Virus genome (UHGV): UHGV-0043902 | Source: a virus | Direction: 5' to 3' (one strand) | DNA: 44,074 nt | Shown here: positions 1 to 44,074 of the stretch, one piece after another | How positions within the stretch are numbered: position 1 is the stretch's first letter | Layout of the letters: every line of letters begins with the position of its first letter | The notes under the pieces: model-generated | What the model was told of the DNA's origin: nothing | Databases searched by the model: none | The model's input: only the letters and a program-made list of their open reading frames with translations | Translations under genes and position numbers: made by a program

Positions 1-870
1 ACCGGTGTCGCCTTTAGGTCCTGGGACACCCTGTGGGCCGGTGTCGCCTTTAGGTCCTGGGACACCCTGTGGGCCGGTGTCGCCTTTTAGCCCCGGTGCA
101 CCTTGTGGGCCGAGCACCCTGTGGGCCGGTATCGCCTTTAGGCCCCGGGGCGCCTTGTGGGCCGGTGTCACCTTTTGGTCCCGGTTCACCCTGCGGACCG
201 GTGTCACCTTTAGGTCCTGGGACACCCTGTGGGCCGGTGTCGCCTTTTAGCCCCGGTGCACCTTGTGGGCCGGTGTCGCCTTTTGCCCCCGGCTCACCCT
301 GTGGACCGGTGTCGCCTTTTGGCCCCGGTGCACCTTGTGGACCGGTATCGCCTTTTAGCCCCGGTGCACCTTGTGGGCCGGTGTCGCCTTTAGGCCCCGG
401 CTCACCCTGTGGACCGGTGTCGCCTTTAGGCCCCGGCTCACCTTGTGGACCGGTGTCGCCTTTTAGCCCCGGTGCACCTTGTGGGCCGGTGTCGCCTTTA
501 GGCCCCGGCTCACCCTGTGGACCGGTGTCGCCTTTAGGCCCCGGCTCACCCTGTGGACCGGTGTCGCCTTTAGGCCCCGGCTCACCCTGTGGGCCGGTGT
601 CGCCTTTAGGCCCCGGCTCACCCTGTGGACCGGTGTCGCCTTTTAGCCCCGGTGCACCTTGTGGGCCGGTGTCGCCTTTAGGCCCCGGTGCACCCTGCGG
701 ACCAGTATCACCTTTCGGACCCGGAGCACCCTGTGGACCGGTGTCGCCTTTTAGCCCCGGTGCACCCTGCGGACCAGTATCACCTTTCGGACCCGGAGCA
801 CCCTGCGGACCAGTATCGCCTTTTGGCCCCGGCTCACCCTGTGGGCCGGTGTCGCCTTTAGGCCCTGGTG
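1..870 (-). repeat. Tandem 36-bp coding repeat array (about 24 units) encoding collagen-like Gly-X-Y repeats ([14 protein letters not shown]) inside the side tail fibre gene; runs off the window start
   Basis: Direct 36-nt periodicity visible in the sequence (ggtgtcgcctttagg(c/t)cc(c/t)gg...caccctgtgg(g/a)cc); translated minus strand gives perfect [10 protein letters not shown](E/A)P units. Confidence 0.9.
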
Positions 871-1456
871 TTTTAGCTATTTTCCTTGCTTCTTCCAGAG
901 CCTTGCAGGCACCAGATTCATATTCCATGGCATCTATTGTTGCCTGTTCTGCCCGACTGGCATTTTGTTCGGTGTCTCTGGCCAGCACATAGGCTTTCTG
1001 CGTATTTTCGGCAATAGCATCAGCATCCTGCCGTATTCCTCTGGCAAGCGTTTCTGTAGTCTGACGAGCCTGTTCAGCGGCGAATGCATGTTGTTCTGCT
1101 TTTTTTTCGCTTTGCTTTACCTGTACTACCATTTCTTCAAAACGCAGCACAACATCTGGTTTGAGATCGCTTTCATCGAGAGCGGTCAGAAAATCGTTTA
1201 ACGTGCCAGGCTTTGAGTCATCGTATACAGCAATATCGCCAACACAGTACTCGTCGCGCCAGTCCTGTTTCAGATATACGCAGTATTTTCCGGTCTGCGC
1301 CTTAAAACAGTACTCGCCACAGTTTCCTGTCACCACGTCGGCAACCGTGTGCATCACCACCTCTGAGGTGTTTACCCGGGATTTCAGAATTATGTGGCAT
1401 CCGGACATGGGGATGCCTGCGCCATCAATCAGCGCACCTGATATCACTACAGACAT
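50..1456 (-). CDS. Side tail fibre protein, lambda Stf-like N-terminal domain followed by collagen-like repeats; 3' end frame-disrupted within the repeats (possible pseudogene or assembly collapse)
   Basis: ORF track 468 aa; N-terminus (..[13 protein letters not shown]..) resembles the lambda Stf N-terminus from memory; about 24 Gly-X-Y units; frame breaks near nt 100-125 where one repeat unit is about 20 nt short. Confidence 0.7.
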
Positions 1457-20089: not shown

Positions 20090-20903
20090 GTTTGCCCTTC
20101 TCCGTTAAAAATTCGTCGGGTAGTTTCTGAGGGGCGTAGATCGGCAGTGCATCGCAACTGCAATAAACCTCCTCCCCGGCAGCAGTGATTTCGTCATAAA
20201 AACCATATACGGGCTTAATCAGCCCCTGCTCCAGCGCCCACGAATCGCGGAGGAGGTAAATTTTCTCGTCGCGCTCTTTGTGGTCCTGTCGGTATTTGTA
20301 GCCCGGACGCCGCCAGTTAGAATGCCAGCGCAGAGCAATCGCTCCACTCTGAACAGCCAGCAGATACTTAACGTTGTTTGCCAGCTTATGCCCCTGATCA
20401 ATTGCCACCCGGCGACTGATAAAATCCATATCCTTCACGGACTTCTGAAAACCGGACTTCACTTCCCGGCGATCAATTTCGCTCACCCCGTCAGGCGGAA
20501 TGGCCGTAACCCATCCCTGAAAACGCTGTATGGTTTTCTCGATAGCCTGTTCGCGGTTGAGTTTTATCAGGTTGGCACTGGCGAAAATTCGCCTGTCGAG
20601 TTCCTTACGAAACTCAGGTTTCAGTTTTTCAACAGTGATTTTTTTAGGGCCATCAGGAGGCTGATCCCGTAATGCCCCGCCGTCGATGACAAGACGGCTG
20701 TAGATAGCGGTGAGATGTTTTCTGGCTACGGTATCATCAGGGGTTTCTCGCTGAGCGGCTACACGGAGTTTCCGGCACCATTCGAGCAATGATTTTTCGC
20801 TATCCCACCCGTGATTTACGTAGTAGTTAACGGCATCCGTCAGAACCTCATACAGCGTCCTGATCCGTTTCTTCTTCCTCACCGCCCGGCTGGAAATTGC
20901 CAT
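20070..20903 (-). CDS. Head morphogenesis protein (SPP1 gp7 / Mu F-like minor head protein)
   Basis: ORF track 20070..21041; start at ATG 20903 with SD aggagacgcctgATG; follows the portal. Confidence 0.45.
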   Translation of the reverse strand: MAISSRAVRKKKRIRTLYEVLTDAVNYYVNHGWDSEKSLLEWCRKLRVAAQRETPDDTVARKHLTAIYSRLVIDGGALRDQPPDGPKKITVEKLKPEFRKELDRRIFASANLIKLNREQAIEKTIQRFQGWVTAIPPDGVSEIDRREVKSGFQKSVKDMDFISRRVAIDQGHKLANNVKYLLAVQSGAIALRWHSNWRRPGYKYRQDHKERDEKIYLLRDSWALEQGLIKPVYGFYDEITAAGEEVYCSCDALPIYAPQKLPDEFLTEKGKREFNRA

Positions 20904-22284
20904 CAGGCGTCTCCTGCTTCGGTGGTTCATAATTCGCCAGCGCGTCCACATCAATGATGAGTGGAGCTTCGCCATAGGTTTGCGTGGCATTAACAAGGCT
21001 TGCCAGCCATTCAGTGACGGCGGCACGGTTTTCAGGATCAACCTGTGGCGACACGGCAGAGAAAAGTGCTATCGCCTGTTGAATCACTTTACTGTCGCTT
21101 TCCCGGCGTTTGTCCGGCGACTCCTCCACCAGCTCCTGCCATGTCGCGGTAAATTCACGTCGCCACTGGTAAAACGTGGTTTTATAGTCATCAGTTATGA
21201 TGTCCGGGTAATCATTTTTCAGCGACTGATAAAATTCCTCGTTCCAGGCGATGTACTGCACCAGGCGTTCGAAATAATCCATCACGGGTTCAATCTGCTG
21301 GCGTACACCATCGATATACTGGCTGATAGCTTTCGAGTCCTCCTTACCTTCACCGAATCCGTTACTGAACGCTTCTTCCTTGATAATAATGGCCGGAACG
21401 TCACTCCCGGCGGCAATATCAGCAATGATGTTGTCGCGGGATGTATTCAGCGCCCCGTCGATGTTTTGCAGGTTCAGTGAACTTACATCTTCGTCTTTTC
21501 CAATACTCAACACGCCTTTATTTTTGGCGGCTTTCACGTTTTCCCTTTTACGCCCCGTGGCAGCAGCCATGATCCCGTCAATTTTCGAACCGTTCTGCAC
21601 AACTTTAGCCACCAGTACGCCTGCCTTCTGGCTGACGAGATCATTCGCCTCCATCGTATTGATATAGGATTTCAGGGAATAAAGAACTCGCTGAAACACG
21701 CTTCGCCCGGTGAATCCGAACGATGAACTCTGAAACTCCAGATAAATCGGTGTGCCGTTGAAGATTTTCAGTGTGCGTGACGGATGCCAGTCTTTTCCGC
21801 CAATCTTCAGTTTTTTATTGGCTTCCTGGAAAAACGGGCTGTTGGGGTTCTGGTCAGTCACCATCGAACCGGAAGCGTTCAACGGGTCCCACGCGTTGAT
21901 ATACACGTCATCTTCTGTCAGTCCGAACGTCGGAAGCGGTTCACGACATGAAACACTGTCGGTGCCCACGCCGATCGCTGCGGCACCGTAGCAACGAGAC
22001 AGAAAAAACAGATTTTTAATCTTCTCGTTAACCTTCATACGTTCCCATACCTCCTGGAAACGCCGCACAACCCGCTCGTCAGGGTCTGTCTCCACGTTGT
22101 ACTGGCGCGGCTTACACATCGCCATCAGTATGGGTTTTTCGACAAGTTTCCCGCCCAGCGGGTGGTACTGCCACAGCAGTTTACACAGTTCATAGCCAAT
22201 GTCGGTTCCCGGCTGAATTTCTTCAGCCTCAAGAATGCGCATCAACGAAGAACTGAGATTTACAGAAATCTCGATCTCAGCCAT
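20848..22284 (-). CDS. Portal protein
   Basis: 478 aa ORF immediately downstream of terminase large subunit; acidic C-terminus. Confidence 0.6.
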   Translation of the reverse strand: MAEIEISVNLSSSLMRILEAEEIQPGTDIGYELCKLLWQYHPLGGKLVEKPILMAMCKPRQYNVETDPDERVVRRFQEVWERMKVNEKIKNLFFLSRCYGAAAIGVGTDSVSCREPLPTFGLTEDDVYINAWDPLNASGSMVTDQNPNSPFFQEANKKLKIGGKDWHPSRTLKIFNGTPIYLEFQSSSFGFTGRSVFQRVLYSLKSYINTMEANDLVSQKAGVLVAKVVQNGSKIDGIMAAATGRKRENVKAAKNKGVLSIGKDEDVSSLNLQNIDGALNTSRDNIIADIAAGSDVPAIIIKEEAFSNGFGEGKEDSKAISQYIDGVRQQIEPVMDYFERLVQYIAWNEEFYQSLKNDYPDIITDDYKTTFYQWRREFTATWQELVEESPDKRRESDSKVIQQAIALFSAVSPQVDPENRAAVTEWLASLVNATQTYGEAPLIIDVDALANYEPPKQETPDGNFQPGGEEEETDQDAV

Positions 22285-22303: not shown

Positions 22304-23632
22304 TTACAATTCCGCGTAATTACCGTGCGCGATGATCAATCCATAGGTGTAACAATCGAAAAGGTCATCAGCACGTTTATGCGCATCTTTGTCTGCCAGG
22401 TGGAACCCGGCGATTTGTTTTATGAGGTGGTTTGCGGTGGTGCGTTTGAATGAAACGGTCTTGTCGTAAGCCTCCCGGACGATTTTGCACATCCCCTGAT
22501 AGTGGTAGCTGGATGCCATCACCGCCCGTTCGTCTTTGCCCTTGCTGGTTAGTGCCGATTTAATCGGCGTCATATCCCAGCCTTCGGTTTCCGCCTTCTG
22601 GTTGAGGATTGCCCCCATCGCGGCGTCTTCCATAAAAATACCCTGGCTGCCCAGACGCGGACGGCATAATTTCGCGAGGCGCTCGAGGTTGTCATAAACG
22701 CCGGGGATATACTCAGGAAGCAATGACGCTTTAATTTGCGTCACATCCCAGTCAATAATCGTCAGTTTTGGCTCGTCCGAATACGTTGACTCATAAGAGA
22801 AATACACCACGCCAGTACCATCATTTTCGGTCCCGCCTTTCAGCGCCGTATCCATCACTGCGAAAATCATGTCGCAGTACGGCGGCATCTCAATTGGTTG
22901 ACCGTCCACCAGCAGCTTATCGACATCGAGTAACGCGTCTTTGGACCAGTCTACGAACTCTGCAAGATATTCCTGCTGCCAGACGCGCGGATCGGATTTT
23001 TTCTCCGTTTCCTCCAGTTCTTCTTTCGGAATATACGGATTCGATGAAGTTGGCGCATGGTGCATAACAAATCCCAGGGATTCATCGTGGCATATCGCGT
23101 AGAAAAAATTGCTCTCGTCGATACCGTTTGGTGTGGAAAATACCCACGCACAGCCGCGGTAATCGACAAGCGTCGGGCGTATCGCTCGGGGCCAGATTTC
23201 CTCGAGCATTTCCGGCGATTTAGTGAATGCGGCCTCATCAATCAGCACAGCGTGATATTTACGCCCACGCCCGGCCAGTTTGTTATTGTCCGTTACCCAA
23301 AAGTCGATGCGCCCCCCATTACGGAGAATGATGCGCTTTTCATTTTTTGACTGACTGAGGATCAGCGGTTGCAGAACGGCGCTAATTTCATCCCAGATTT
23401 CCTGGTACTGGCGGTATTGCGCGGTAAAAATCCCCACCCTACCCGCGATAAGTTGCCCGGTGGTAGGAACGGCAAATTTTCGCGTAGCGAAACTGGTAGC
23501 GATGTTCACCAGCATCACCGTTTTACCCCAGCGACGACCACAGCATACCGCGTGGAAGCGTTCCTCTATTGCCGCCGTCCATGCAGCTATTTGCCCCTCA
23601 TGAGGTTTTGGGAGGTAGATTTCAATCGACAT
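22304..23632 (-). CDS. Terminase large subunit
   Basis: 442 aa; Walker A-like CGRRWGKT and Walker B-like VLIDEAAF; C-terminal nuclease-like acidic residues. Confidence 0.85.
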   Translation of the reverse strand: MSIEIYLPKPHEGQIAAWTAAIEERFHAVCCGRRWGKTVMLVNIATSFATRKFAVPTTGQLIAGRVGIFTAQYRQYQEIWDEISAVLQPLILSQSKNEKRIILRNGGRIDFWVTDNNKLAGRGRKYHAVLIDEAAFTKSPEMLEEIWPRAIRPTLVDYRGCAWVFSTPNGIDESNFFYAICHDESLGFVMHHAPTSSNPYIPKEELEETEKKSDPRVWQQEYLAEFVDWSKDALLDVDKLLVDGQPIEMPPYCDMIFAVMDTALKGGTENDGTGVVYFSYESTYSDEPKLTIIDWDVTQIKASLLPEYIPGVYDNLERLAKLCRPRLGSQGIFMEDAAMGAILNQKAETEGWDMTPIKSALTSKGKDERAVMASSYHYQGMCKIVREAYDKTVSFKRTTANHLIKQIAGFHLADKDAHKRADDLFDCYTYGLIIAHGNYAEL

Positions 23633-24713
23633 TATCCACTCCCGGCATCGGCAAAGAGTTGTGGATAATTATTTCGTTATTCTCACCACCCACGCCTTTT
23701 TTGAGGTTTTCAATCTCAGTGCGCAGCTTTTCGTTCCGAAGCCTCAGTCCTTCAAGCTCCAGATCATTGCGACTGTCAGTTGCACCACCAGCAGAACTTC
23801 CTTTCGTCGCCATTATCAGCTTGATAAGTTCGCGCCGGGCGGCAGCCTTATTCTCCAGCAGGATCTCAACACCAAATTTCCCGAGCTTTGCCCCTGCATA
23901 TAATTGCCGCGCATCCCCATCAAGCAGAGTGGTATCAGCCATATAAAGCTGCCCCGTTCCCTCACCGCAGCACTTCGGGCAGTCCGGATTGGGTATGGCG
24001 TTATCAACAAAGCCGAGGCCTCCATATTCCGGCTCGGGTTTGCCATCTCTGGAGGCCTGTGCCGCTGCCTTATCGAATTCTGCAATATCACGCCACTGGT
24101 AGAGATGATTCTCGCCCCAGCAATAACGGCAGTTAACACGGCGAAATTGTGCCAACTGATTGGGGTCGGCCTGGACAATGGCCATCAACTGACTCACCAG
24201 TAAATCCAGGTCTGCGGTATAGCGTTTCTGGTACTGATTGCGGAAGTAGCTGATGGCACGATAAACCTTAGGATTTCTTAGGAGCTGGCTGGCGGTTACG
24301 TAGGCCGCATTCCCCTCTGACTCGTATCCTGCCAGGCGATATGCCTCAACGAGTTTTTTCCCCTGGGCAACCAGCATTGCGAATTTCGCCTGCTGGTCTG
24401 AAATACCGAATTCATCGGGACAGAACGAAATTTCTTCCGCATCGCCCTCATTCAGGTACGCATCGGATACTGGCTTTTTTTCCTGAGATTTTCCGTTCCG
24501 CTTTTGCGCAGTCTGCGCAGGTTTTTTCTGCGCACTTTTTTGCGCAGTTTTGCGCAATTCTGCCTGCGCATTTTTCGGAGGTTTTTTGATGTAACGACGG
24601 GCTGTTGCGTAATTCAGTCCCCTTGCTTCACACCATGCCACCGGAGATATACCGGAGCGGGTGTATTCAGCAATATACTCCTGCTGCAACGCCCCCCAGT
24701 CCGGTCTGCTCAT
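23622..24713 (-). CDS. Terminase small subunit (Terminase_2-like core with extra N-terminal HTH and C-terminal Cys4 region)
   Basis: 363 aa; core motif AKFAMLVAQGKKLVEAYRLAGYES...ASQLLRNPKV; N-terminal GLNYATARRYIK HTH; C-terminal CRYC...CPKCC; overlaps the TerL start by 11 nt. Confidence 0.7.
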   Translation of the reverse strand: MSRPDWGALQQEYIAEYTRSGISPVAWCEARGLNYATARRYIKKPPKNAQAELRKTAQKSAQKKPAQTAQKRNGKSQEKKPVSDAYLNEGDAEEISFCPDEFGISDQQAKFAMLVAQGKKLVEAYRLAGYESEGNAAYVTASQLLRNPKVYRAISYFRNQYQKRYTADLDLLVSQLMAIVQADPNQLAQFRRVNCRYCWGENHLYQWRDIAEFDKAAAQASRDGKPEPEYGGLGFVDNAIPNPDCPKCCGEGTGQLYMADTTLLDGDARQLYAGAKLGKFGVEILLENKAAARRELIKLIMATKGSSAGGATDSRNDLELEGLRLRNEKLRTEIENLKKGVGGENNEIIIHNSLPMPGVDNVD

Positions 24714-24716
24714 CAG

Positions 24717-24968
24717 TTAGTCCTGATTTTTATCCACCCTGAGTAGTTCGCGCAGGGCAAAGGCATCCCCTTTTCTGGCAAGCTTAAACAATGCCGCCCG
24801 TAGCTCGGCTTCACCTTTCGCTCTGCCCTTACGGATGGACGCATAAAAATTTGTCATTGCTTCCCGATTTTCTTTCAGTCGGTTCAGATCAACATCCAGA
24901 ACGTCAGCGATTTGTTGTGCAGTCATCCGGCACGCTGCCAGAGACTCGACTTTCGAATACGGAATCAT
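24717..24968 (-). CDS. Small HTH-like protein, hypothetical
   Basis: 83 aa; SD gggggtgacaaATG; helix-rich with basic stretch. Confidence 0.4.
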   Translation of the reverse strand: MIPYSKVESLAACRMTAQQIADVLDVDLNRLKENREAMTNFYASIRKGRAKGEAELRAALFKLARKGDAFALRELLRVDKNQD

Positions 24969-25854
24969 TTGTCACCCCCATTGATATGCAGGGTGTCTTC
25001 TTCCTGTATTTTTCGTGAAGGATTTTTACTGCAGCGTTGTTCCAGGTGACCTGATGGTGAATGCGTTTATGGCTGGCACCCATCAGTGAAATTTTTACAC
25101 ACGACGGCGCATACATGACGGAGTAAAAACTTTTAACGTAGGTTCCGGAATCCAGATACAGCTCGGTCATTCCGCCGCTGTTTTTCTGCGTCTGTTTCTG
25201 CCCTAACTGGACAGCACCGATCGTCATAAACAATTCACCACGGCGACCGAGATTCGTGTACGTATTCACATCCTCGTTAATGCGCCCCATGAATGAGAAC
25301 GGTCGATCAACCGAACAGATAAAGCTGTTCATTGCCTTGCGTTTCACCCATGAAGCATGGCCGCCATTGTCACCAAGAAAATCCCCGCCCTGCGACATAG
25401 CGATGGAAAGAGCAGGTATTGATTCGTAATACGCCAGCATTTCAGAAAGGATCGCATCCAGTTTCCTTATCGGAAAATAGGCCTGGTCATAGTTGCGATC
25501 CACCCGAAACTGAAACTCGTGATAATCATCATCGAGCTGAATGAAGTATTTACACCCGACCTTTTTTGCCAGGTCGAAACAGGCATTACGGGCGTAAAAA
25601 ATTGAGCGACGATCACCGAAATTATCGGCTTCGTCAAAACGACTGGCGATTTCGGCTTTGGAAAACACCAGCACCTGTTCACCAAATTCTGCTATGTACT
25701 GATGCCGGGTTTTATCTTCATCATCAACGACGATAAAAATTTTCCCGGTATAGCCAGCACGACGCAAAGTCCGGTAAGTCAGAACTTTGTCCGGTCGCCC
25801 ATGAGTCAGAATAAAGGCGCAAAAATCATCACGCATATTCCTCCTCCCCGCCAT
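24904..25854 (-). CDS. Putative glycosyltransferase-like protein (GT-A-like N-terminus with DxD-type acidic motifs), soluble
   Basis: 316 aa; FILTHGRPD resembles the GT2 (I/V)PTYNRP motif; VVDDEDK and QLDDDYHEF acidic motifs; start overlaps the ParB-like gene by 26 nt. Confidence 0.4.
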   Translation of the reverse strand: MAGRRNMRDDFCAFILTHGRPDKVLTYRTLRRAGYTGKIFIVVDDEDKTRHQYIAEFGEQVLVFSKAEIASRFDEADNFGDRRSIFYARNACFDLAKKVGCKYFIQLDDDYHEFQFRVDRNYDQAYFPIRKLDAILSEMLAYYESIPALSIAMSQGGDFLGDNGGHASWVKRKAMNSFICSVDRPFSFMGRINEDVNTYTNLGRRGELFMTIGAVQLGQKQTQKNSGGMTELYLDSGTYVKSFYSVMYAPSCVKISLMGASHKRIHHQVTWNNAAVKILHEKYRKKTPCISMGVTNDSVFESRVSGSVPDDCTTNR

Positions 25855-26617
25855 GCATGATCTCCACCATGCACTGAGTCATCCGGACAAAACCATTTTC
25901 AATAGCCTGCTGATAATCAATGATCACCAGTGCCGACTCTTCGAAAAGCGCCTGAACTTCAGCGGGCGCATGAGCGTAATAGCCCGCAATTCTGCTGAAA
26001 TTAAATACTGTGTGGCGTTCTGCCGCACACAGGAGGAATTTTTCGATATCAGGATCAAGGGACGCCGAACGTATCCGGCTGACCAGCTCCTGAGTTTTCG
26101 TATCGTCGTACAGTTCGCCGATATCCGGTTTATCGCCCGACGGCTCATAAACAGGCGTATCAATTTTCGTCGTGTACGGCTCCTCCTCATTTCCTGTACC
26201 TGGCAAAACATCCGTCAACAGTTCATCAATTTCTGTCGGGCTGAATCCTGTCAGGGAGATATCAAAATCAGCATTGATTAGCTCCGACAGTTCCACCCGT
26301 AACAGTTCTTCATCCCAGCCAGCGTTGAGCGGCAGGCGATTATCTGCCAGGCGGTACGCCTTTTTTTGGTCATCCGTCAGACCAGACAGAACAATGACCG
26401 GAACCGAATCCATTTTGAGCACCTCAGCCGCCATCACGCGACCGTGACCAGCAATAATTTCGCCCTTTTCGTCAATCAGCACCGGATTGGTCCAGCCGAA
26501 TTGCTTAATGCTTTCTACCAGTTGTGCCACCTGCTCAGGGCTGTGTGTCCTGGCGTTGTGCGCATACGGAGACAGTTTTTGTAACGGGCGATAGACGATC
26601 TTCAATTTCTCGCTCAT
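25829..26617 (-). CDS. ParB N-terminal (ParB/Srx-fold) domain protein
   Basis: 262 aa; LIDEKGEIIAGHGRVMAA matches the ParB-box GxxR motif region; SD gaggctgtATG. Confidence 0.7.
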   Translation of the reverse strand: MSEKLKIVYRPLQKLSPYAHNARTHSPEQVAQLVESIKQFGWTNPVLIDEKGEIIAGHGRVMAAEVLKMDSVPVIVLSGLTDDQKKAYRLADNRLPLNAGWDEELLRVELSELINADFDISLTGFSPTEIDELLTDVLPGTGNEEEPYTTKIDTPVYEPSGDKPDIGELYDDTKTQELVSRIRSASLDPDIEKFLLCAAERHTVFNFSRIAGYYAHAPAEVQALFEESALVIIDYQQAIENGFVRMTQCMVEIMHGGEEEYA

Positions 26618-26741
26618 ACAGCCTCGCTTGATGAATAAAAAAGCTCACTAACAGCCAGTGCGCTGGGTGCGCGGCGGGTGCTGTTGGTGAGCCTGGCATT
26701 ATCGCAGCCCATCGCTGTGTGAAGGGCTGCTGTAATGCCTG

Positions 26742-27041
26742 TTACTCAGTAACTACCGCACCTTCCGGTAACTCCATACCAGCAAATACCGGACAACCAG
26801 GATGACGATCATCTTCTGTTGCTTCCAGCATTGACTCACCAAACCACTCCGTCGTGGCGCGACCATCAGCTGCTTTGTAGTGGATCAAGTACTGGTTTTC
26901 GCCATCCGCATACTGCGCACGGGCTTTAACCTCACCCCATTCATCACTGATGCGCATCTCCACCAGTTGAGACAACTCAAACTTAAACGGAGCAGCATCA
27001 GCACCAATTACAATCGGTTTGTTTTCTGTTTTTTCCATCAT
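26742..27041 (-). CDS. Hypothetical protein, about 99 aa
   Basis: ORF track 26742..27089; ATG-ATG at about 27041 with SD caggagacgATGATG. Confidence 0.4.
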   Translation of the reverse strand: MMEKTENKPIVIGADAAPFKFELSQLVEMRISDEWGEVKARAQYADGENQYLIHYKAADGRATTEWFGESMLEATEDDRHPGCPVFAGMELPEGAVVTE

Positions 27042-27212: not shown

Positions 27213-27395
27213 TCAGTTCTGCATACACTGCCGAACACCGTCGACAATTTCACAGACCTGAGAAGCTGTATCGAAAAGCTGGCGCGCCTTATTCAGGCTG
27301 ACGCATCCCACCAATAAAAAAGGCACCAGTATCGCTACCAGTGCCCATTTCGCTGCCGTTCGCGGCATTCTATGTGTCCAGTGTTTTCGACTCAT
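27213..27395 (-). CDS. Small lipoprotein (possible o-spanin-like lysis accessory; partner i-spanin not identified)
   Basis: ORF track 27213..27467; hydrophobic h-region plus lipobox LVGC in ..AAKWALVAILVPFLLVGC..; start slightly overlaps the endolysin 3' end. Confidence 0.45.
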   Translation of the reverse strand: MSRKHWTHRMPRTAAKWALVAILVPFLLVGCVSLNKARQLFDTASQVCEIVDGVRQCMQN

Positions 27396-27409: not shown

Positions 27410-27793
27410 TCAGCGTTTCAATTGGAAGTGCGGCCCGTCCTTCAGCGTTTTCCAGTCCCCGCCCCATTCGATGGCGACTCCCAGCTCTGCGGCAGCCTGC
27501 TTAAATGCCTGTGCGATTTTCTCGTACAGAGGCCAGTCCCATGACACCTGGCTGCCAACATAAGCCACAACATCCACAGCATCACCGGTCAGGTGGCAGC
27601 TGTTCATGGTCTGGCTTTTCCCTTCCGCGACCAGCTGTTTCTGGCGTTCTTTCGTGCGCAGCCCTTCCGTAATACCGAAATCAACCTCCGTCAATTCCAG
27701 CGCACGGCGAACGACAGCAACCAGCTGTGGTTTGACGCCCTCCAGATTTTTTTTACTGCGACGACTGAATCTGAATTTACCCGACATGCTCAC
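27410..27793 (-). CDS. Endolysin, peptidase M15 family (L-alanyl-D-glutamate peptidase, T5-type)
   Basis: 127 aa; motifs VKPQLVAVVRRALEL, SCHLTGDAVD, GGDW...GPHFQL parallel the phage T5 endolysin. Confidence 0.85.
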   Translation of the reverse strand: MSMSGKFRFSRRSKKNLEGVKPQLVAVVRRALELTEVDFGITEGLRTKERQKQLVAEGKSQTMNSCHLTGDAVDVVAYVGSQVSWDWPLYEKIAQAFKQAAAELGVAIEWGGDWKTLKDGPHFQLKR

Positions 27794-28065
27794 CTCCGGA
27801 ATGAAAGGATTTTTGAAACGTTCCCGCGTGCGCGTATTACCAGCACGCAGAACAGCAGATTAAGCCCCACCGCCAGCCAGTTCGCCGCTAACGGGCGACC
27901 GCACAGATAGCTGAGTGGTGCAAAGGCATACAGCAGCATCAGCAGCCAGGCCAGCCATGACATCAGCGGTTTGTGTCTGGAATCACGGCGACGATAAAAA
28001 AAGAGCGTCAGCACGATAACCGTGCATAACGCTACATTCAGCAATCCGGGAATGTTACTTAACAT
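27790..28065 (-). CDS. Small membrane protein of the lysis cassette (holin/antiholin-like, about 3 TM segments)
   Basis: ORF track 27790..28119; ATG at 28065 with SD ggaggaggcggcaATG; strongly hydrophobic. Confidence 0.5.
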   Translation of the reverse strand: MLSNIPGLLNVALCTVIVLTLFFYRRRDSRHKPLMSWLAWLLMLLYAFAPLSYLCGRPLAANWLAVGLNLLFCVLVIRARGNVSKILSFRR

Positions 28066-28447
28066 TGCCGCCTCCTCCACCCCGCAGACGGGAGAACAGG
28101 CCGGACACCAGTGATGCAATATCCTGCTGGTGGATGAACGAGAGAATCTTCACCGACACCACTGACACCAGCACTGCACACAGTGCGTCGACAGGCGCAC
28201 CGTCAAACCCTGTATGCTTTACCAGCCAGGATGCCAGAACCTCTGCGCCCAGCACGCCGATAATGAACGACACCAGAAAATGCGCCGCCACACGCCAGGC
28301 TGAAAGCGCCTGCGGCATCGTTGCCACAAATAACGCCCCGGCGAACGCACCAAACACAATCCCGAAATCCGTTCCGGTAAACAGCCCGAATACCGTCGCC
28401 CCGCCGAGCGCCACAGCCGTGCCGGAACCGGATAAGGGTTCAGACAT
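28055..28447 (-). CDS. Holin
   Basis: ORF track 28055..28519; ATG at 28447 with SD caggagaaaaaagtATG; multiple TM segments (..FGLFTGTDFGIVFGAFAGALFV.., ..FLVSFIIGVLGAEVLA..); first gene of the lysis cassette. Confidence 0.65.
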   Translation of the reverse strand: MSEPLSGSGTAVALGGATVFGLFTGTDFGIVFGAFAGALFVATMPQALSAWRVAAHFLVSFIIGVLGAEVLASWLVKHTGFDGAPVDALCAVLVSVVSVKILSFIHQQDIASLVSGLFSRLRGGGGGNVK

Positions 28448-29204: not shown

Positions 29205-29279
<75 letters not shown>

Positions 29280-29282
29280 ATA

Positions 29283-29358
<76 letters not shown>

Positions 29359-31477: not shown

Positions 31478-31725
31478 NNNNNNNNNNNNNNNNNNNNNNN
31501 NNNNNNNNNNNNNNNNNNNNNNNNNNNNNNNNNNNNNNNNNNNNNNNNNNNNNNNNNNNNNNNNNNNNNNNNNNNNNNNNNNNNNNNNNNNNNNNNNNNN
31601 NNNNNNNNNNNNNNNNNNNNNNNNNNNNNNNNNNNNNNNNNNNNNNNNNNNNNNNNNNNNNNNNNNNNNNNNNNNNNNNNNNNNNNNNNNNNNNNNNNNN
31701 NNNNNNNNNNNNNNNNNNNNNNNNN
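31478..31725. other. Assembly gap (248 N); true length and content unknown
   Basis: Run of n characters in the sequence. Confidence 1.
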
Positions 31726-31769
31726 CAGATGACGATCAGGGCGATTAACATCGCCTTTTGCTGCTTCAT
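31726..31769 (-). CDS. hokD: hok-family type I toxin gene, 5' fragment (HokD/RelF-like N-terminus), interrupted by the assembly gap
   Basis: Minus strand ATG at 31769 then MKQQKAMLIALIVI(C) exactly as the Hok/Gef N-terminal transmembrane start; ORFs reported across the gap are artefacts. Confidence 0.7.
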
Positions 31770-37186: not shown

Positions 37187-37205
37187 TATTGGATACCCTA
37201 TTCAA

Positions 37206-37628
37206 TCAATGCACTACGACAGAATCGCCGGGCGACCCACCACCGCTGAAATGTGCTTTCCGGTAAACGGCCTGGACTGCATCATCATGCGCATCAATTG
37301 CCGTACTCAACGCTTCCTGCGCCGCCAGTAATGCACGGCGTTCCAGGGTATCGAAGATGCAGAGTCGGTGACGCAGCTCGCGCGGAAGAATTGCCAGAAC
37401 CGCAGGGATCAGTGTCTGAATTTTTTCCCTTTGCGCTTTCGTTTCACCTTTTAACCAACGGTGATAGATGTTCTGCTGATTATTCCAGTCCTTGCCTGGT
37501 ACCAGGGGCAATTCGCCGCCCCCCTGGCGCAGATATTCTTCAGTAATTGCATTGGCTACCCATGCCTGCCCTTTTTCAGCGGCCAGGGCTAACAGCACTG
37601 ATTCGATGTGCTCATGCCTGATTTTCAT
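37206..37628 (-). CDS. ydaT: YdaT-like protein (Rac-type cII-position protein)
   Basis: 140 aa; MKIRHEHIESVLLALAAEKGQAWVANAITEEYLRQ... resembles Rac YdaT from memory; SD caggagttgattcATG. Confidence 0.6.
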   Translation of the reverse strand: MKIRHEHIESVLLALAAEKGQAWVANAITEEYLRQGGGELPLVPGKDWNNQQNIYHRWLKGETKAQREKIQTLIPAVLAILPRELRHRLCIFDTLERRALLAAQEALSTAIDAHDDAVQAVYRKAHFSGGGSPGDSVVVH

Positions 37629-37887
37629 GAATCAACTCCTGTGCATTTTGTGTGTTAGCCTTACATCCAACAGGTAAACCATCGGTCGGATTCGGGTAGA
37701 TATCAGGCCGGAGTTCATGAGGTGTAACCTCGAAATTCGTTACTTCAGCAACACGTAATGCTTTTTCAGGGCTGAATCTTTCATAGCCCCCCAGTACTCG
37801 ACTTACATGCACCTGAGATAAACCCGTTAGCTTCCCAAACTGTAGCTGGGTGATATGTTTCTCTTTTAAATAGTCTCTTAAGTTCAT
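37612..37887 (-). CDS. ydaS: Cro-like HTH protein (YdaS family)
   Basis: ORF track 37612..37893 (TTG); ATG at 37887 with SD gaaggttggctATG; HTH ..QLQFGKLTGLSQVHVSRVL.. and ELRPDI motif. Confidence 0.6.
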   Translation of the reverse strand: MNLRDYLKEKHITQLQFGKLTGLSQVHVSRVLGGYERFSPEKALRVAEVTNFEVTPHELRPDIYPNPTDGLPVGCKANTQNAQELIHENQA

Positions 37888-39248: not shown

Positions 39249-39423
39249 AAAGTGAATTTTGTGATGCGGTGAATGCGGCTAAGCGCACGCGGCACAGTTA
39301 AAAGTCATGTTAGTCCTTATTGGTTTGGGTGGGAAAGCCGACTGTAATTGTTAACTGGTTGCAGTCACCTGGAGGCACCAGGCACCGCATCAACAAAGTT
39401 CATTTGTAAAAATGGAGATAATT

Positions 39424-39645
39424 ATGATTGCTCATCACTTCGGAACTGATGAAATACCACGTCAGTGTGTGACCCCTGGCGATTATGTTCTTCATGAAGG
39501 TCGGACATATATCGCCTCGGCAAACAATATTAAAAAGCGAAAACTTTATATTCGTAGCCTGACTACAAAAACATGCATTTCTGACTGCATGATTAGAGTC
39601 TTCATCGGTCGTGATGGTTTACCTGTAAAGGCGGAGTCATGGTAA
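39424..39645 (+). CDS. kilR: KilR-like cell-division inhibitor
   Basis: [46 protein letters not shown]... resembles Rac KilR from memory; SD ggagataattATG. Confidence 0.65.
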
Positions 39646-39815
39646 TGACTAAGAAAATAAAATGTGCTTATCACCTTTGCAATAAAGAAATTGAAGAAAG
39701 CAAAATCATTACAAGACCACTTCATTTCATGCGTGGAGTTATACCAACGACGGAAATGAAAAAATATTGTAGTGAAATCTGTGCCGAAAAAGACCAGATG
39801 GCACACGAACTTTAA
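39645..39815 (+). CDS. ydaE: YdaE-like small zinc-binding protein (56 aa)
   Basis: ATG overlaps the kilR stop (TAATG); [56 protein letters not shown] with four Cys. Confidence 0.5.
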   Translation: MTKKIKCAYHLCNKEIEESKIITRPLHFMRGVIPTTEMKKYCSEICAEKDQMAHEL

Positions 39816-39889
39816 TTAACTGACTATCCGAAACTGAATTTATGCCAGCAATGGCAGGGATTCGCTCAACCTTAATTAAGGAGAAAAAC

Positions 39890-40165
39890 ATGATTACCAG
39901 TTATGAAGCCACTGTTGTTACTACTGATGACATTGTTCACGAAGTTACCCTGGAAGGAAAGCGTATTGGCTACGTGATTAAGACAGAAAATAAAGAAACC
40001 CCATTCACTGTGGTTGATATCGACGGTCCATCAGGCAACGTTAAAACACTTAACGATGGTGTTAAAAAAATGTGTCTGGTGCACATAGGAAAGAATCTGC
40101 CCGCAGAAAAAAAAGCCGAATTTCTGGCAACTCTGATTGCAATGAAATTAAAAGGTGAAATCTGA
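39890..40165 (+). CDS. racC: RacC-like protein (91 aa)
   Basis: SD ttaaggagaaaaacATG; ORF track 39842..40165 with internal start. Confidence 0.45.
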   Translation: MITSYEATVVTTDDIVHEVTLEGKRIGYVIKTENKETPFTVVDIDGPSGNVKTLNDGVKKMCLVHIGKNLPAEKKAEFLATLIAMKLKGEI

Positions 40166-40263
40166 AAAAAGAAAGCCTGCACACTGTGCAGGCCTGAGTG
40201 AAGAACCTGGGACATTTATTCATCACTCGCAGTAATTTTAATCTGAGTTGAGGTTAAAAAACA

Positions 40264-42282
40264 ATGAGCACCGATAAACAAGTTTACCCACTGTATTACG
40301 AAGCAAAAAATGACAAAGTAAGAAAACGTCTCGGTATTAAAGGCGGTTTCTACTGGGCTGAAGCGAAAAAATTATCCATTGCCATCTCCCGTGGTGCTGT
40401 TGCGATTGACGATGCTGGCTACGATGAAGATGACTTTAAAAAACCTGTTCGCGTCAATTTGCCCGTTGTTGATGACCTTCCACCAGAAGGCGTATTTGAT
40501 ACGGAATTCTGCAACCGTTACGAAAAAGGCGGGGAAGATGGCATCACAATGGTATTTATCGCGCCCTCATCCTCTGCGCAGGACAAACCAGCCAGCACTG
40601 ACAATACCAATGTTAATGGCGAAGACATGACGGAGATTGAGGAGAATATGCTACTCCCGATTTCCGGTCAGGAGCTGCCCATTCGCTGGCTTGCTCAACA
40701 CGGCAGCGAAAAACCGGTGACGCACGTTTCACGCGACGAACTCCAGGCATTACACATTGCACGAGCTGAAGAACTACCAGCTGTTACTGCCCTGGCTGTT
40801 TCCCACAAAACCAGCCTGCTCGACCCGCTGGAAATTCGCGATCTCCACAAACTGGTGCGTGATACTGACAGAGTTTTCCCTAATCCAGGCAATTCAAGCC
40901 TGGGGCTGATGACTGCTTTTTTCGAAGCATACCTGGACGCAGACTACACCGATCGTGGTCTGCTGACAAAAGAGTGGATGAAAGGGAATCGTGTTTCACG
41001 CATCACGCGCACGGCTTCCGGCGCTAATGCTGGCGGCGGGAACCTCACCGATCGCGGCGAAGGTTTCGTTCACGATCTGACGTCACTGGCGCGCGACGTA
41101 GCCACTGGCGTACTGGCTCGTTCAATGGACGTGGACATTTATAACCTTCATCCGGCACACGCTAAACGTGTCGAGGAAATTATCGCTGAAAATAAACCGC
41201 CCTTTTCTGTTTTCCGCGACAAATTCATCACCATGCCTGGCGGGCTGGATTATTCCCGCGCCTTCGTGGTTGCGTCCGTAAAAGAAGCACCAATTGGGAT
41301 CGAGGTTATCCCCGCACACGTCACTGAATATCTAAACAAAGTACTGACTGAAACTGATCATGCCAACCCTGATCCAGAAATCGTGGATATTGCCTGCGGT
41401 CGTTCCTCTGCCCCGATGCCGCAGCGTGTAACAGAAGAAGAAAAACAGGATGATGAAGAAAAACTGCAACCATCTTGCGCAATGGCAGATGAACAGGCAA
41501 CGGCTGAAACAGTGGAACCGGATGCAACTGAACATCATCAGGACACGCAGTCGCTGGATGCTCAGTCACAGGTAAATTCTGTTGATGCGAAATATCAGAA
41601 ACTGCGGGCAGAACTCCATGAAGCCCGGAAAAACATTCCGCCCAAAAATCCTGTCGATGCAGACAAATTACTGGCTGCCTCTCGCGGAGAATTTGTTGAA
41701 GGGATTAGCGACCCGAATGATCCGAAATGGGTTAAGGGGATCCAGACCCGCGACTCTGTGTACCAGAATCAGCCAGAAACGGAACATAACGACCAAAAAG
41801 CGGAACAGAACGACCCAAATACGCAACAAAACGAGCCAGAAACGAAACAGCCTGAGCCAGTAGTGCACCAACAGGAAACGGAGAAAGTTTGCATCGCCTG
41901 CGGTCAGGCTGGCGGCGGCAACTGTCCTGACTGCGGCGCGGTGATGGGCGACGCAACGTATCAGAAAACCTTTAATGAAGAAAATCAGAATGAATATCAG
42001 GAAAAAGGTCTGGAGGAAATGGAAGGTGCTGAACATCCGCACAAGGAGAACGATGGCAGCGATCCGCATCGCGATTGCAGTGATGAAACTGGCGAAGCAG
42101 CAGCTTCATCATTAGAAAAACTCGACTGGAAAAGACAAGTGGTGATTGCAGCGGTTTACGGTTTATGTGCAAATCCTGCGGGTATAGCCTCAGCGCCATT
42201 AATTCCGGGTATTGCAATGATGATTGCAAACAAACTTGAAAATTTTGGGGTGACGGATGATGAGTACATGCCCAATTTTTGA
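40264..42282 (+). CDS. recE: RecE-like protein lacking the C-terminal exonuclease domain; ends in a novel hydrophobic tail
   Basis: 672 aa; long stretches resemble the dispensable N-terminal two-thirds of Rac RecE (from memory); terminates with ..[42 protein letters not shown]..; overlaps the gam start. Confidence 0.5.
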
Positions 42283-42556
42283 TCGCATTGAAGAGCAGGC
42301 ATGGTCACGCCACTACCAGCAAATCGTTCGCGAAGAAAAAGAAACGGAGCTGGCGGACGACCTGGAAAAAGGTCTGCCCCAGCACCTGTTTGAATCGCTC
42401 TGCATCGACCATTTGCAACGCCACGGTGCCAGCAAACAGGCAATCAGTCGCGCATTTGATGACGATGTTGAATTTCAGGAACGTGTGGCGGAGCACATCC
42501 GGTACATGGTTGAAACCATTGCTCGTCACCAGGTTGATATTGATTCAGAGGTATAA
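42257..42556 (+). CDS. gam: Gam (RecBCD inhibitor), short GamS-like form
   Basis: 99 aa; ..[45 protein letters not shown]...[20 protein letters not shown] near-identical to the lambda Gam C-terminal 90 aa. Confidence 0.9.
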
Positions 42557-42561
42557 AACGA

Positions 42562-43347
42562 ATGAGTACAGCACTTGCAACACTGGCCGGGAAGCTGGCT
42601 GAACGCGTCGGCATGGATTCTGTCGACCCGCAGGAACTGATCGCCACTCTTCGCCAGACGGCATTTAAAGGTAATGCCAGCGATGCGCAATTCATCGCGC
42701 TGCTGATCGTCGCCAACCAGTACGGACTTAATCCGTGGACGAAAGAGATTTACGCCTTCCCTGATAAGCAGAACGGCATTGTTCCGGTGGTGGGCGTTGA
42801 TGGCTGGTCCCGCATCATAAATGAAAACCAGCAGTTTGATGGCATGGACTTTGAGCAGGACAATGAATCATGTACATGCCGGATTTACCGCAAGGACCGT
42901 AATCATCCGATCTGCGTTACCGAGTGGATGGATGAGTGCCGTCGCGAACCATTCAAAACCCGAGAAGGCAAAGAAATCATCGGACCATGGCAGTCGCATC
43001 CCAAACGGATGTTACGGCATAAAGCCATGATTCAGTGTGCCCGTCTGGCCTTCGGATTTGCTGGTATCTATGACAAGGATGAAGCCGAGCGCATTGTCGA
43101 AAATACCGCATGCACTGCAGAACATCAGCCGGAACGCGACATCACTCCGGTTAACGATGAAACCATGCAGGAGATTAACACTCTGCTGATCGCCCTGGAT
43201 AAAACATGGGATGACGACTTATTGCCGCTCTGTTCCCAGATATTTCGCCGCGACATTCATGCATTGTCAGAACTGAAACAGGCCGAAGCAGTGAAAGCTC
43301 TTGGATTCCTGAAACAGAAAGCCGCAGAGCAGAAGGTGGCAATATGA
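42562..43347 (+). CDS. bet: Bet (Red-beta single-strand annealing protein)
   Basis: 261 aa; [27 protein letters not shown]...[13 protein letters not shown] near-identical to lambda Bet. Confidence 0.95.
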
Positions 43348-44024
43348 CACCGGACATTATCCTGCAGCGTACCGGGATCGACGTGAGAGCTATCGTACAG
43401 GGGGATGATGCGTGGCACAAATTACGGCTCGGCGTCATCACAGCTTCAGAAGTTCACAACGTGATAGCAAAACTCCGCTCCGGAAAGAAATGGCCTGACA
43501 TGAAAATGTCCTACTTCCACACCCTGCTTGCCGAGGTTTGCACCGGTGTGGCTCCGGAAGTTAACGCTAAGGCGCTGGCCTGGGGAAAACAGTACGAGAA
43601 CGACGCCAGAACCCTGTTTGAGTTCACTTCCGGCGTGAATGTTACTGAATCCCCGATCATCTATCGTGACGAGACTATGCGCACCGCCTGCTCTCCCGAT
43701 GGTTTATGCAATGACGGCAACGGCCTTGAGCTGAAATGCCCGTTCACCTCCCGGGATTTCATGAAGTTCCGGCTCGGTGGTTTCGAGGCCATAAAGTCGG
43801 CTTACATGGCCCAGGTGCAGTACAGCATGTGGGTGACGCAAAAAGATGCCTGGTACTTTGCCAACTATGACCCGCGTATGAAGCGTGAAGGCCTGCATTA
43901 TGTCGTGGTTGAGCGGGATGAAAAGTACATGGCGAGTTTTGACGAGATGGTGCCAGAATTCATCGAAAAAATGGACGAGGCACTGGCTGAAATTGGTTTT
44001 GCATTTGGGGAACAATGGAAATGA
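43344..44024 (+). CDS. exo: Exo (lambda exonuclease, Red-alpha)
   Basis: 226 aa; [16 protein letters not shown]...[13 protein letters not shown]...GEQWK near-identical to lambda Exo; ATGA overlap with bet. Confidence 0.95.
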
Positions 44025-44074
44025 GCGCAGCCATAAAGCTCACAGGAGAAAAACCAGTGCTATACACAAAAGTC

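Follow-up and report, generated by a model that had tools for sequence, protein, structure and literature searches.

Why does a phage carry a gene for a ParB-like protein that runs directly into a gene for a glycosyltransferase (GT), just ahead of its terminase genes, and to what would such a GT attach its sugar? The question is posed by the virus genome UHGV-0043902, 44,074 nt long (the window, by which the whole of this stretch of DNA is meant), which is a nearly complete lambdoid prophage of E. coli, resembling Rac; its ParB-GT stretch is 100% identical to that of the mouse-associated strains M8, RSHH22 and SK6988. The answer proposed here, to which we give a little less than even chances, is that the two proteins make up a late, partner-dependent two-subunit system for glycosylating phage DNA. 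Both protein families are already known; what appears to be new is their TET-independent pairing and a partner domain, with a realistic chance of new chemistry. (A note on the literature: no experimental work was found on the pair, on ynaK or on the cultured phages that carry the pair; nor was a ParB-TAGT module independent of TET, or the partner domain, found described, in a coverage that did not extend to the 2013 paper defining the TAGT family.)

The GT gene lies on the minus strand; its longest open reading frame (ORF; 24904-25854 (-)) codes for 316 aa and contains the motifs FILTHGRPD, VVDDED and QLDDDYHEF. Because all homologues begin at the equivalent of Met7 (MRDDF... in the alignment), because the PGAP start is identical, and because a GGGGAGGAGG tract precedes the Met7 ATG, the start is likely at 25836, which makes the GT a protein of 310 aa (24904-25836 (-)) and leaves an 8-nt overlap, ATGCGTGA, with the ParB gene. 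A sequence-only reading of this DNA had already recognized the coupling of the two genes; its overlap of 26 nt holds for the longest ORF and is probably 8 nt from the Met7 start. That reading had also taken the protein for a soluble, GT2-like one: the GT-A fold and the quoted motifs stand, but the protein is not an orphan. It belongs to a curated family, PF20691 (TAGT), which matches residues 14-228 with 127.3 bits (cutoff 27.5; E 1e-36) and is present in all of the at least 120 GT homologues listed. No other Pfam domain is found in the GT; it also matches phrog_842, and its PGAP name is 'GREB1-related'. The DXD motif, D102-D103-D104 in Met7 numbering (25525-25533 (-)), lies within LDDDY and does not vary among the 62 homologues compared, which come from many phyla; together with the GT-A nucleotide-sugar transferase fold, it is the mark of a TAGT enzyme. 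The N-terminal half of the AF2 model is confident and Rossmann-like, and the best matches in a viral structure library are TAGT-domain phage proteins; a GT profile found no match among PDB sequences, and no PADLOC or NCBIfam model matched the GT. The protein is basic (pI 8.9). Its profile gathers ~1,500 clusters at 50% identity, 712 of them with E <= 1e-30; TAGT members of T4-like (Aeromonas) phages are only 23-26% identical to it.

Some relatives of the GT are long, being fused to extra domains: a second TAGT, a SAM-methyltransferase or Sulfotransfer_2, a carbohydrate sulfotransferase. Because the added domains are of these kinds, they point to real sugar transfer followed by tailoring of the glycan. 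Insertions between partner and GT are of the same sort (an extra TAGT in one locus, L159; a TAGT-methyltransferase fusion in another, L149), and none is a dioxygenase. At one locus the partner is itself a methyltransferase-ParB fusion. These fusions, of GT relatives and of the partner, are represented by P0248, P0256, P0282, P0286, P0265 and P0272 and by L149:3581-5275 and L116:189-1739. Natural fusions of ParB to GT were not found: no ParB domain is present in the long GT representatives that were tested.

The partner gene (25829-26617 (-)) encodes 262 aa, including the motif IIAGHGR. It scores 28.7 bits with Pfam ParB_N (PF02195), above the cutoff of 26.3, and reaches E 8e-87 with phrog_620; TIGR00180 gives 36.5, below its cutoff of 58.45. 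The N-terminal domain, aa 1-135 (26213-26617 (-)), has the ParB-CTPase/Srx fold: PDB profiles match it to Noc, ParB and Spo0J, and Foldseek matches it with probability 1.0 to Noc, ParB-CDP, PadC and KorB. The sequence-only reading had proposed this fold for a 262-aa protein, with Foldseek as the way to check it, and ORF, PF02195 match and Foldseek all agree. Three boxes can be recognized, N21-A-R23 as Box I, G57-H-G-R60 as Box II and a Box III that includes N93; among 62 pairs G57 is present in 60, R60 in 53 and N93 in 59. Box II is nevertheless GHGR in place of the canonical GERR, the Glu of hydrolysis being replaced by His or Asn, so that NTP binding is at most predicted. By sequence the domain is linked to proteins annotated as DNA enzymes: it is 50-56% identical (tblastn) to the N-domains of proteins annotated as phage DNA methylases, and matches the N-terminal part of PADLOC MTase_II (E 2.6e-38) and phrog_498 (E 1.2e-51, residues 3-141). 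Because of this resemblance, kinship ties the full-length versions of the partner, as judged from sequence, to DNA. Pfam identifies no SAM-dependent methyltransferase domain in GT or partner, and neither protein has a PAPS-reductase domain, as the sequence-only reading had it.

The rest of the partner is better conserved than its N-domain. Residues 136-175 (26093-26212 (-)) form a linker that is predicted to be disordered (AF2 pLDDT <50 over 136-170) and that carries the motif Y148-[T/S]149-x-K-[I/V]-x-x-P155-x-Y157; Y148, P155 and Y157 are the same in every one of the 62 pairs, which span phyla, and residue 149 is T or S throughout. A C-terminal helical domain follows (aa 176-262 and stop codon, 25829-26092 (-)), an undescribed domain with the pattern FLxxAAxRHxxF...IAxYY...QxLxExSALVIID...AIxxG and six residues (L195, R201, A211, Y214, E226, D234) that do not vary in the 62 pairs. 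It is the most conserved part of the partner, with a mean pairwise identity of 0.53, to be compared with 0.51 for the GT, 0.36 for the linker and 0.32 for the N-domain. The N-domain is present in ~80% of loci. In at least eight loci, and in the Vibrio jumbo phages, it is missing: the GT is preceded there by an ORF of just 130-150 aa that matches linker and C-domain alone, with no N-domain ORF nearby; Vibrio phage pv27 (191 kb; L170:6459-7888), for example, has a 139-aa linker + C-domain protein before its GT (E 1.8e-45), and in the Vibrio jumbo phages the GT lies within the replication module, beside a helicase gene. Because linker and C-domain occur next to the GT without the N-domain, this undescribed unit of ~115 aa is the obligate partner of the GT, and the ParB N-domain is a frequent N-terminal addition. 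Profile comparisons with PDB and Pfam disclosed neither a solved relative nor a Pfam model for the unit (a match to FadA at E 0.002 was dismissed as weak coiled-coil-like noise), and a search with the C-domain alone brought up, for the most part, fragments at contig edges, and no new architecture. In a mirror-tree comparison the GT and its partner co-vary modestly among distant pairs (r = 0.26), which is not used as evidence of contact.

How general is the pairing? A scan of genomes dereplicated by species returned 80 loci at 44-60% identity, spread over Proteobacteria, Bacteroidota, Firmicutes, Kiritimatiellia, Acidobacteriota, Ignavibacteria and candidate phyla. (An IMG/VR harvest, consisting mostly of near-identical E. 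coli prophages, was left out of the statistics.) Scoring 78 diverse loci with HMMs of both proteins, which is the co-occurrence analysis that the sequence-only reading had recommended, places the partner upstream of the GT on the same strand in 76; the remaining two end at a contig edge. The two genes overlap or abut in 71 loci. Such pairing is far beyond chance, and on gene order the pair is to be regarded as obligate: of 1,201 clusters of neighbours, just two, those of the ParB partner and the GT, occur universally, and the most frequent of the others is found at 16/83 loci. What follows the pair is nearly as regular. Of 63 loci with >=3.5 kb of downstream sequence, 57 have a large ORF within 4.5 kb, and that ORF (only the first was considered) is TerL in ~49 cases and a portal in 8; the TerL proteins span at least four Pfam families (Terminase_6N, Terminase_3, GpA, TerL_ATPase). 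Overall, terminase or portal genes come immediately 3' of the pair in ~85% of the loci whose downstream sequence is long enough. By this evidence the pair is a pan-phage, obligate module heading the packaging operon, and not cargo peculiar to lambdoid phages. Carriers in culture include Salmonella SPF_0923, several E. coli isolates, Nocardia NTR1 and the haloarchaeal virus HHTV-2. In Lactobacillus phi jlb1 the order is late activator, pair, TerS, TerL; in the L. delbrueckii phages c5 and LL-Ku the pair is ORF1/ORF2 and adjoins cos. Among complete E. coli genomes, 889 of 5,426 (~16%) carry at least 80% of the pair.

The module is nonetheless not needed for packaging as such. Because Rac-SA53 and pPE4 have a TerS/TerL/portal module that is ~95% identical and yet lack the cassette, the cassette (~24717-26637) is, on this comparison, a discrete accessory unit dispensable for packaging. 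Its upstream boundary is placed near 26637 by pPE4, in which the counterpart of window 26637-26748 abuts the TerS start. HNH endonucleases take the same slot, before cos and TerS, in phiP27-type phages.

Several known systems offer themselves for comparison. The nearest is that of O'Toole et al. (PNAS 2026; PMC13229309), in which ParB-like proteins activate a subclass of phage thymine dioxygenases on double-stranded DNA (dsDNA), in a manner that survived mutation of the NTP-binding residues. ParB176, the partner of 5mYOX176, has the same layout as the protein considered here: a nucleotide-binding domain, a short helical segment, a disordered linker of ~50 aa and a C-terminal domain, with no DNA-binding domain (PMC13229309). 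The spacing of the boxes is similar (N21/R23/S36/R60 here, N14/R16/S29/R56 in ParB176), in both cases ParB stands beside a modifying enzyme, that of ParB176 acting post-replicatively and needing its ParB, and GT and terminase genes are frequent neighbors. The differences are that the enzyme here is a glycosyltransferase, that no dioxygenase is present, and that the N-domain is sometimes missing; the comparison is with the published description of layout and residue spacing. It also bears on the suggestion, made from sequence alone, that the ParB protein carries out a nucleotide-activated transfer. That suggestion finds no support: the closest precedent is an activator that works independently of its NTP-binding residues (PMC13229309), and the N-domain is the least conserved part of the partner. 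Fusions of ParB to N6/N4 methyltransferases in phages (phrog_498; PADLOC MTase_II; Kaljevic et al. 2025, PMC12704722) share the homologous N-domain and, like the pair, are enriched in prophages; here, in contrast, the ParB-like protein is a separate polypeptide, its enzyme is a glycosyltransferase, and an extra conserved linker and C-domain would mediate the coupling. Genes with a ParB N-domain do occur in the same terminase-adjoining slot, as in Vibrio phage X29, where the product is annotated as a methylase and is only 201 aa long.

On the side of the enzyme, the likeness is to TAGT proteins such as the T2/T6 beta-glucosyl-HMC-alpha-glucosyltransferase and GREB1 (PF20691): HMM membership, GT-A fold, DXD motif, solubility and, for the phage enzymes, origin. 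The GT differs from these in its obligate coupling to a partner and in the absence from its genome of TET/JBP or of a pathway to hydroxymethylcytosine or hydroxymethyluracil (hmC/hmU). The alpha- and beta-glucosyltransferases of T4 likewise sugar phage DNA after replication, as a defense against restriction; they differ in that their hmC is incorporated during replication and in that they need no partner protein. The T4 enzymes have a GT-B fold. Finally, the partner is not a partition ParB of the ParABS type: it has no HTH domain by Pfam or in the AF2 model, and the prophage has no ParA gene.

The proposed system would work as follows. The cassette would be an accessory one, expressed late as part of the late operon, immediately ahead of the terminase genes. 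Its catalytic subunit, a soluble, basic TAGT enzyme of the GT-A fold, would be made by translational coupling with an acidic partner, whose linker motif and C-domain would either activate the GT by binding to it or offer it the substrate; the ParB-type NTP-binding N-domain, where it is present (in most versions, including that of this prophage), would couple GT activity to dsDNA, much as ParB activators do for phage thymine dioxygenases and as the ParB-methyltransferase fusions suggest. Since it is expressed late, just before the terminase genes, the system would add sugar to phage DNA that has already been replicated, ahead of packaging or in the course of it. Where relatives possess further TAGT, methyltransferase or sulfotransferase modules, the decoration would be a tailored oligosaccharide, and the incoming genome would be protected from nuclease-based defenses in the next host. 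The DNA-modification or anti-defense role suggested from the sequence is thus retained as the best-supported hypothesis, in view of the TAGT family, the methylase-like N-domain and the dispensable cassette. Obligate pairing, position in the packaging operon, accessory nature, the opposite charges of the two proteins (median pI 8.8 for the GT, 4.6 for the partner) and the glycan-tailoring relatives all speak for it. That DNA could be the acceptor is made plausible by the assignment, to a T6-type TAGT, of the addition of the second glucose on glucosyl-hmC DNA (PMC13390438) and by the glycosylation of DNA by viral GT-A enzymes (bioRxiv 10.1101/2023.12.21.572611). That phage ParBs direct DNA-modification enzymes at packaging was proposed by Aravind and co-workers, as cited in PMC8256090.

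The weak point is the acceptor group. The expected substrates of TAGT enzymes are 5hmC and 5hmU, or a sugar that these bases already carry (PMC13390438; bioRxiv 10.1101/2023.12.21.572611). No source of such bases was found, which weighs against DNA as the substrate. The 44-kb prophage contains no oxygenase, thymidylate-synthase-like hydroxymethylase, kinase or methyltransferase according to Pfam and PGAP; phi jlb1 (38 kb) and c5 (32 kb), whose genomes are complete, have no gene for TET/JBP, for a dCMP/dUMP hydroxymethylase or for a kinase, nor any unassigned ORF large enough to hide one; and neighbor clustering over 83 loci discloses no recurrent TET/JBP, hydroxymethylase or kinase. (A technical note: absence of TET is judged from Pfam and PGAP annotation and from the clustering of neighbors. 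PF12851 is absent from the five loci that were fully annotated with Pfam. A Pfam scan of 208 upstream neighbor representatives, in which the best 25 families per batch were considered, found among them generic replication and recombination genes and occasional DNA methylases and PAPS reductases.) We know of no demonstration that a glycosyltransferase attaches sugar to a canonical base of DNA, and phage DNA glycosylation is known to us only on hydroxymethyl or hydroxy pyrimidines made beforehand by a dedicated enzyme. With neither TET/JBP nor hydroxymethylase at hand, the acceptor would therefore have to be a canonical DNA group or some other group that is universally available. It is conceivable, though we regard it as less likely than not, that the TAGT enzyme and its ~115-aa partner domain attach sugar straight to a canonical group in DNA, bypassing any hydroxymethyl-pyrimidine intermediate; the acceptor could then be a base that bears no modification, an end of the DNA or its backbone.

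Other features of the proteins themselves speak against DNA too. The partner is strongly acidic and has no recognizable DNA-binding domain; its ParB N-domain, on which the link to DNA chiefly depends, is the part that varies most, and at least eight loci and the Vibrio jumbo phages lack it; and the C-terminal half of the GT, which presumably holds the acceptor site, is modeled with low confidence. Might the acceptor instead be a protein, the GT modifying Tyr, Thr or Ser in the linker of its own partner, or another phage or host protein, with the glycoprotein as effector? Glycogenin-like self-glycosylation is a precedent. The invariant Y148-to-Y157 motif, set in predicted disorder, fits an acceptor or docking peptide; the universal partner is the linker and C-domain, not the ParB N-domain; a fused sulfotransferase is typical of glycoconjugates; and the problem of the missing DNA acceptor disappears. 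The TAGT domain of the animal protein GREB1, moreover, is reported to glycosylate protein, by O-GlcNAcylation (PMC7968844). Against this, the clade of ParB N-domains to which the partner belongs is otherwise coupled to DNA methyltransferases, a T6-type TAGT enzyme acts on DNA, as would another TAGT member, JGT, predicted to be the base-J glucosyltransferase and reportedly grouped with GREB1 in the 2013 description of the family, and the position in the packaging operon, like that in the jumbo-phage replication module, fits DNA. A docking site would explain the short invariant motif equally well, and there is no evident reason why an acidic ParB-like protein should be glycosylated. On balance, protein glycosylation is the main rival, and we consider it unlikely.

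The remaining explanations are much less probable. That the GT follows the classical TET-TAGT route, acting on 5hmC or 5hmU supplied by a dioxygenase or hydroxymethylase encoded elsewhere in phage or host, is suggested by the name and original context of the family and by the presence of ParB, GT and terminase genes beside phage 5mYOX in 27%, 31% and 19% of metavirome contigs (PMC13229309), and rare singletons could have escaped a Pfam listing confined to the best 25 families. The gene inventories of the 44-kb prophage, of phi jlb1 and c5 and of the five annotated loci nevertheless stand against it, no neighbor cluster apart from the pair exceeds 16/83 loci, and what is inserted between partner and GT is an extra TAGT, not a dioxygenase. 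E. coli, to our knowledge, has no TET. We hold this route to be the most improbable of all. Only slightly better placed is modification of the cell envelope or of a small molecule, for example a TarP-like change of teichoic acid, or of LPS, leading to superinfection exclusion; origins of this kind are discussed by the authors of 10.1101/2023.12.21.572611, but Gram-negatives, Gram-positives, Bacteroidota and the host of a haloarchaeal virus share no envelope acceptor, a late-operon gene would not be expressed from a lysogen, and the GT is soluble and coupled to a ParB-fold partner. The pair also occurs in c5, which we take to be virulent. An accessory role in packaging or partition with no DNA modification at all, ParB marking pac or cos or segregating the genome and the GT-like protein being structural or regulatory, is a shade more credible and still very improbable. 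A place directly 5' of TerS/TerL that is conserved whatever the terminase family, the HNH endonucleases in the same slot of phiP27-type phages and the ParB-like fold are what one would expect of it; phages with nearly identical TerS, TerL and portal that do without the cassette, the lack of HTH domain and ParA gene, catalytic motifs that are invariant across phyla, fusions that tailor glycans, and the replication-module location in jumbo Vibrio phages are not.

The minus-strand gene order of the prophage is Q-like antiterminator, two tRNAs, holins, M15 endolysin, small ORFs, ParB-like gene, GT, 69-aa ORF, TerS, TerL, portal, head and myovirus tail. The pair thus lies between lysis genes (27410-28447, upstream) and packaging genes (22304-24713 (-), downstream in the same overlapping gene chain), as the sequence-only reading had placed it. 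The TerS + TerL block, identified by Pfam (Terminase_2/Terminase_6N) and PHROG matches, consists of the small terminase gene (23622-24713 (-)), which overlaps the next, and the large terminase gene (22304-23632 (-)). Because successive genes from ParB through TerL overlap or abut, the pair appears to sit inside a chain of translationally coupled late genes, and inspection of the sequence discloses no convincing promoter or terminator between the pair and the terminase genes. The intergenic leader 5' of the ParB-like gene (26618-26741 (-)) contains a hairpin, CAGCCC...GGGCTG, and a Shine-Dalgarno sequence, GAGG, 5 nt 5' of the ParB ATG, so that the Shine-Dalgarno attributed to the pair is indeed its own.

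The interval originally singled out, 24717-27041, also holds two small ORFs outside the conserved pair. The first encodes an HTH-like protein of 69 aa (24717-24926 (-); maximally 83 aa, to 24968), is a PGAP coding sequence and matches phrog_309, a partial TerS, with E 2.5e-22; it overlaps the 3' end of the GT gene by 23 nt, and its own end is 3 nt short of the TerS start. This ORF belongs to the cassette as found in enterobacteria and has not been kept in other groups: Yersinia loci carry an 82-aa equivalent, and phi jlb1, in which the GT directly precedes TerS, has no counterpart. The second, a 98-aa phrog_1935 ORF of unknown function (26742-27038 (-)), is 96% identical in DNA to L33 of phiP27, a phage without the pair; because it is found both with and without ParB-GT, it is an independent small late gene.

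The cassette has left a trace in E. coli K-12, in which ynaK of the Rac prophage consists of the first ~85 codons of the ParB gene and 44 nt of upstream sequence (window 26364-26661, 90.6% identity; L177), the rest of the cassette and the packaging genes being deleted. K-12 ydaY was considered as a remnant of the GT and rejected: its annotated frame is homologous neither to ParB nor to GT. Genes for an LT-II-type heat-labile enterotoxin (A/B) fill the slot between lysis and packaging genes at two loci (L003:2180-3332 and L175:7432-8572); in the first, a prophage of Yersinia enterocolitica, they lie directly upstream of ParB-GT, and in the second, Rac-SA53, they replace the pair.

Further features of the window are recorded here for completeness. 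A strong terminator-like hairpin with an 11-bp stem and a T-run (27321-27346 (-)) separates the lysis cassette from the phrog_1935 ORF, and antitermination would be needed for late transcription to pass it into the ParB-GT-terminase genes. Genes for tRNA-Gly(tcc) (29205-29279 (-)) and tRNA-Thr(tgt) (29283-29358 (-)) lie between the Q-like antiterminator and holin genes, a slot that in phiP27 holds tRNAs and Stx2e. The 478-aa protein encoded at 20848-22284 (-) has the PGAP name 'anti-CBASS protein Acb1 family'; its place after TerL, its size and portal-type Pfam matches at equivalent loci (DUF4055, Yersinia) indicate a portal, and the name is probably an artefact. The tail-fibre gene (50-1000 (-)) contains ~30 tandem collagen-like repeats, PKGDTGPQG[A/E]PG, which account for a local GC content of 0.65 and an AT skew of -0.47. 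The Rac-like early region (31609-31764, 37201-37882, 39419-44074) includes a hok/gef toxin gene, ydaS/ydaT, kil, a RecE-family exonuclease gene, gam, bet, exo and the start of ralR.

What would it mean if the proposal is right? Conservation of the pair extends from prophages of E. coli to Bacteroidota, Firmicutes, Actinobacteria and one virus of haloarchaea. If it modifies DNA, very common temperate phages would possess a new acceptor chemistry and a hidden epigenetic layer, with consequences for restriction, CRISPR and type IV defense, for the basecalling of nanopore and SMRT reads, and for enzyme tools. If a canonical DNA group is glycosylated directly, DNA would be modified by chemistry of a new kind, present in ~16% of complete E. 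coli genomes and carried by phages of most bacterial phyla and of haloarchaea; 'TET-associated' would then be a misnomer for the largest TAGT clade. If the acceptor is a protein, the pair would constitute a new phage glycoprotein system. Either way, the role of ParB-like proteins as activators of DNA-modifying enzymes would be extended, and a new partner domain is defined that can be tested in E. coli.

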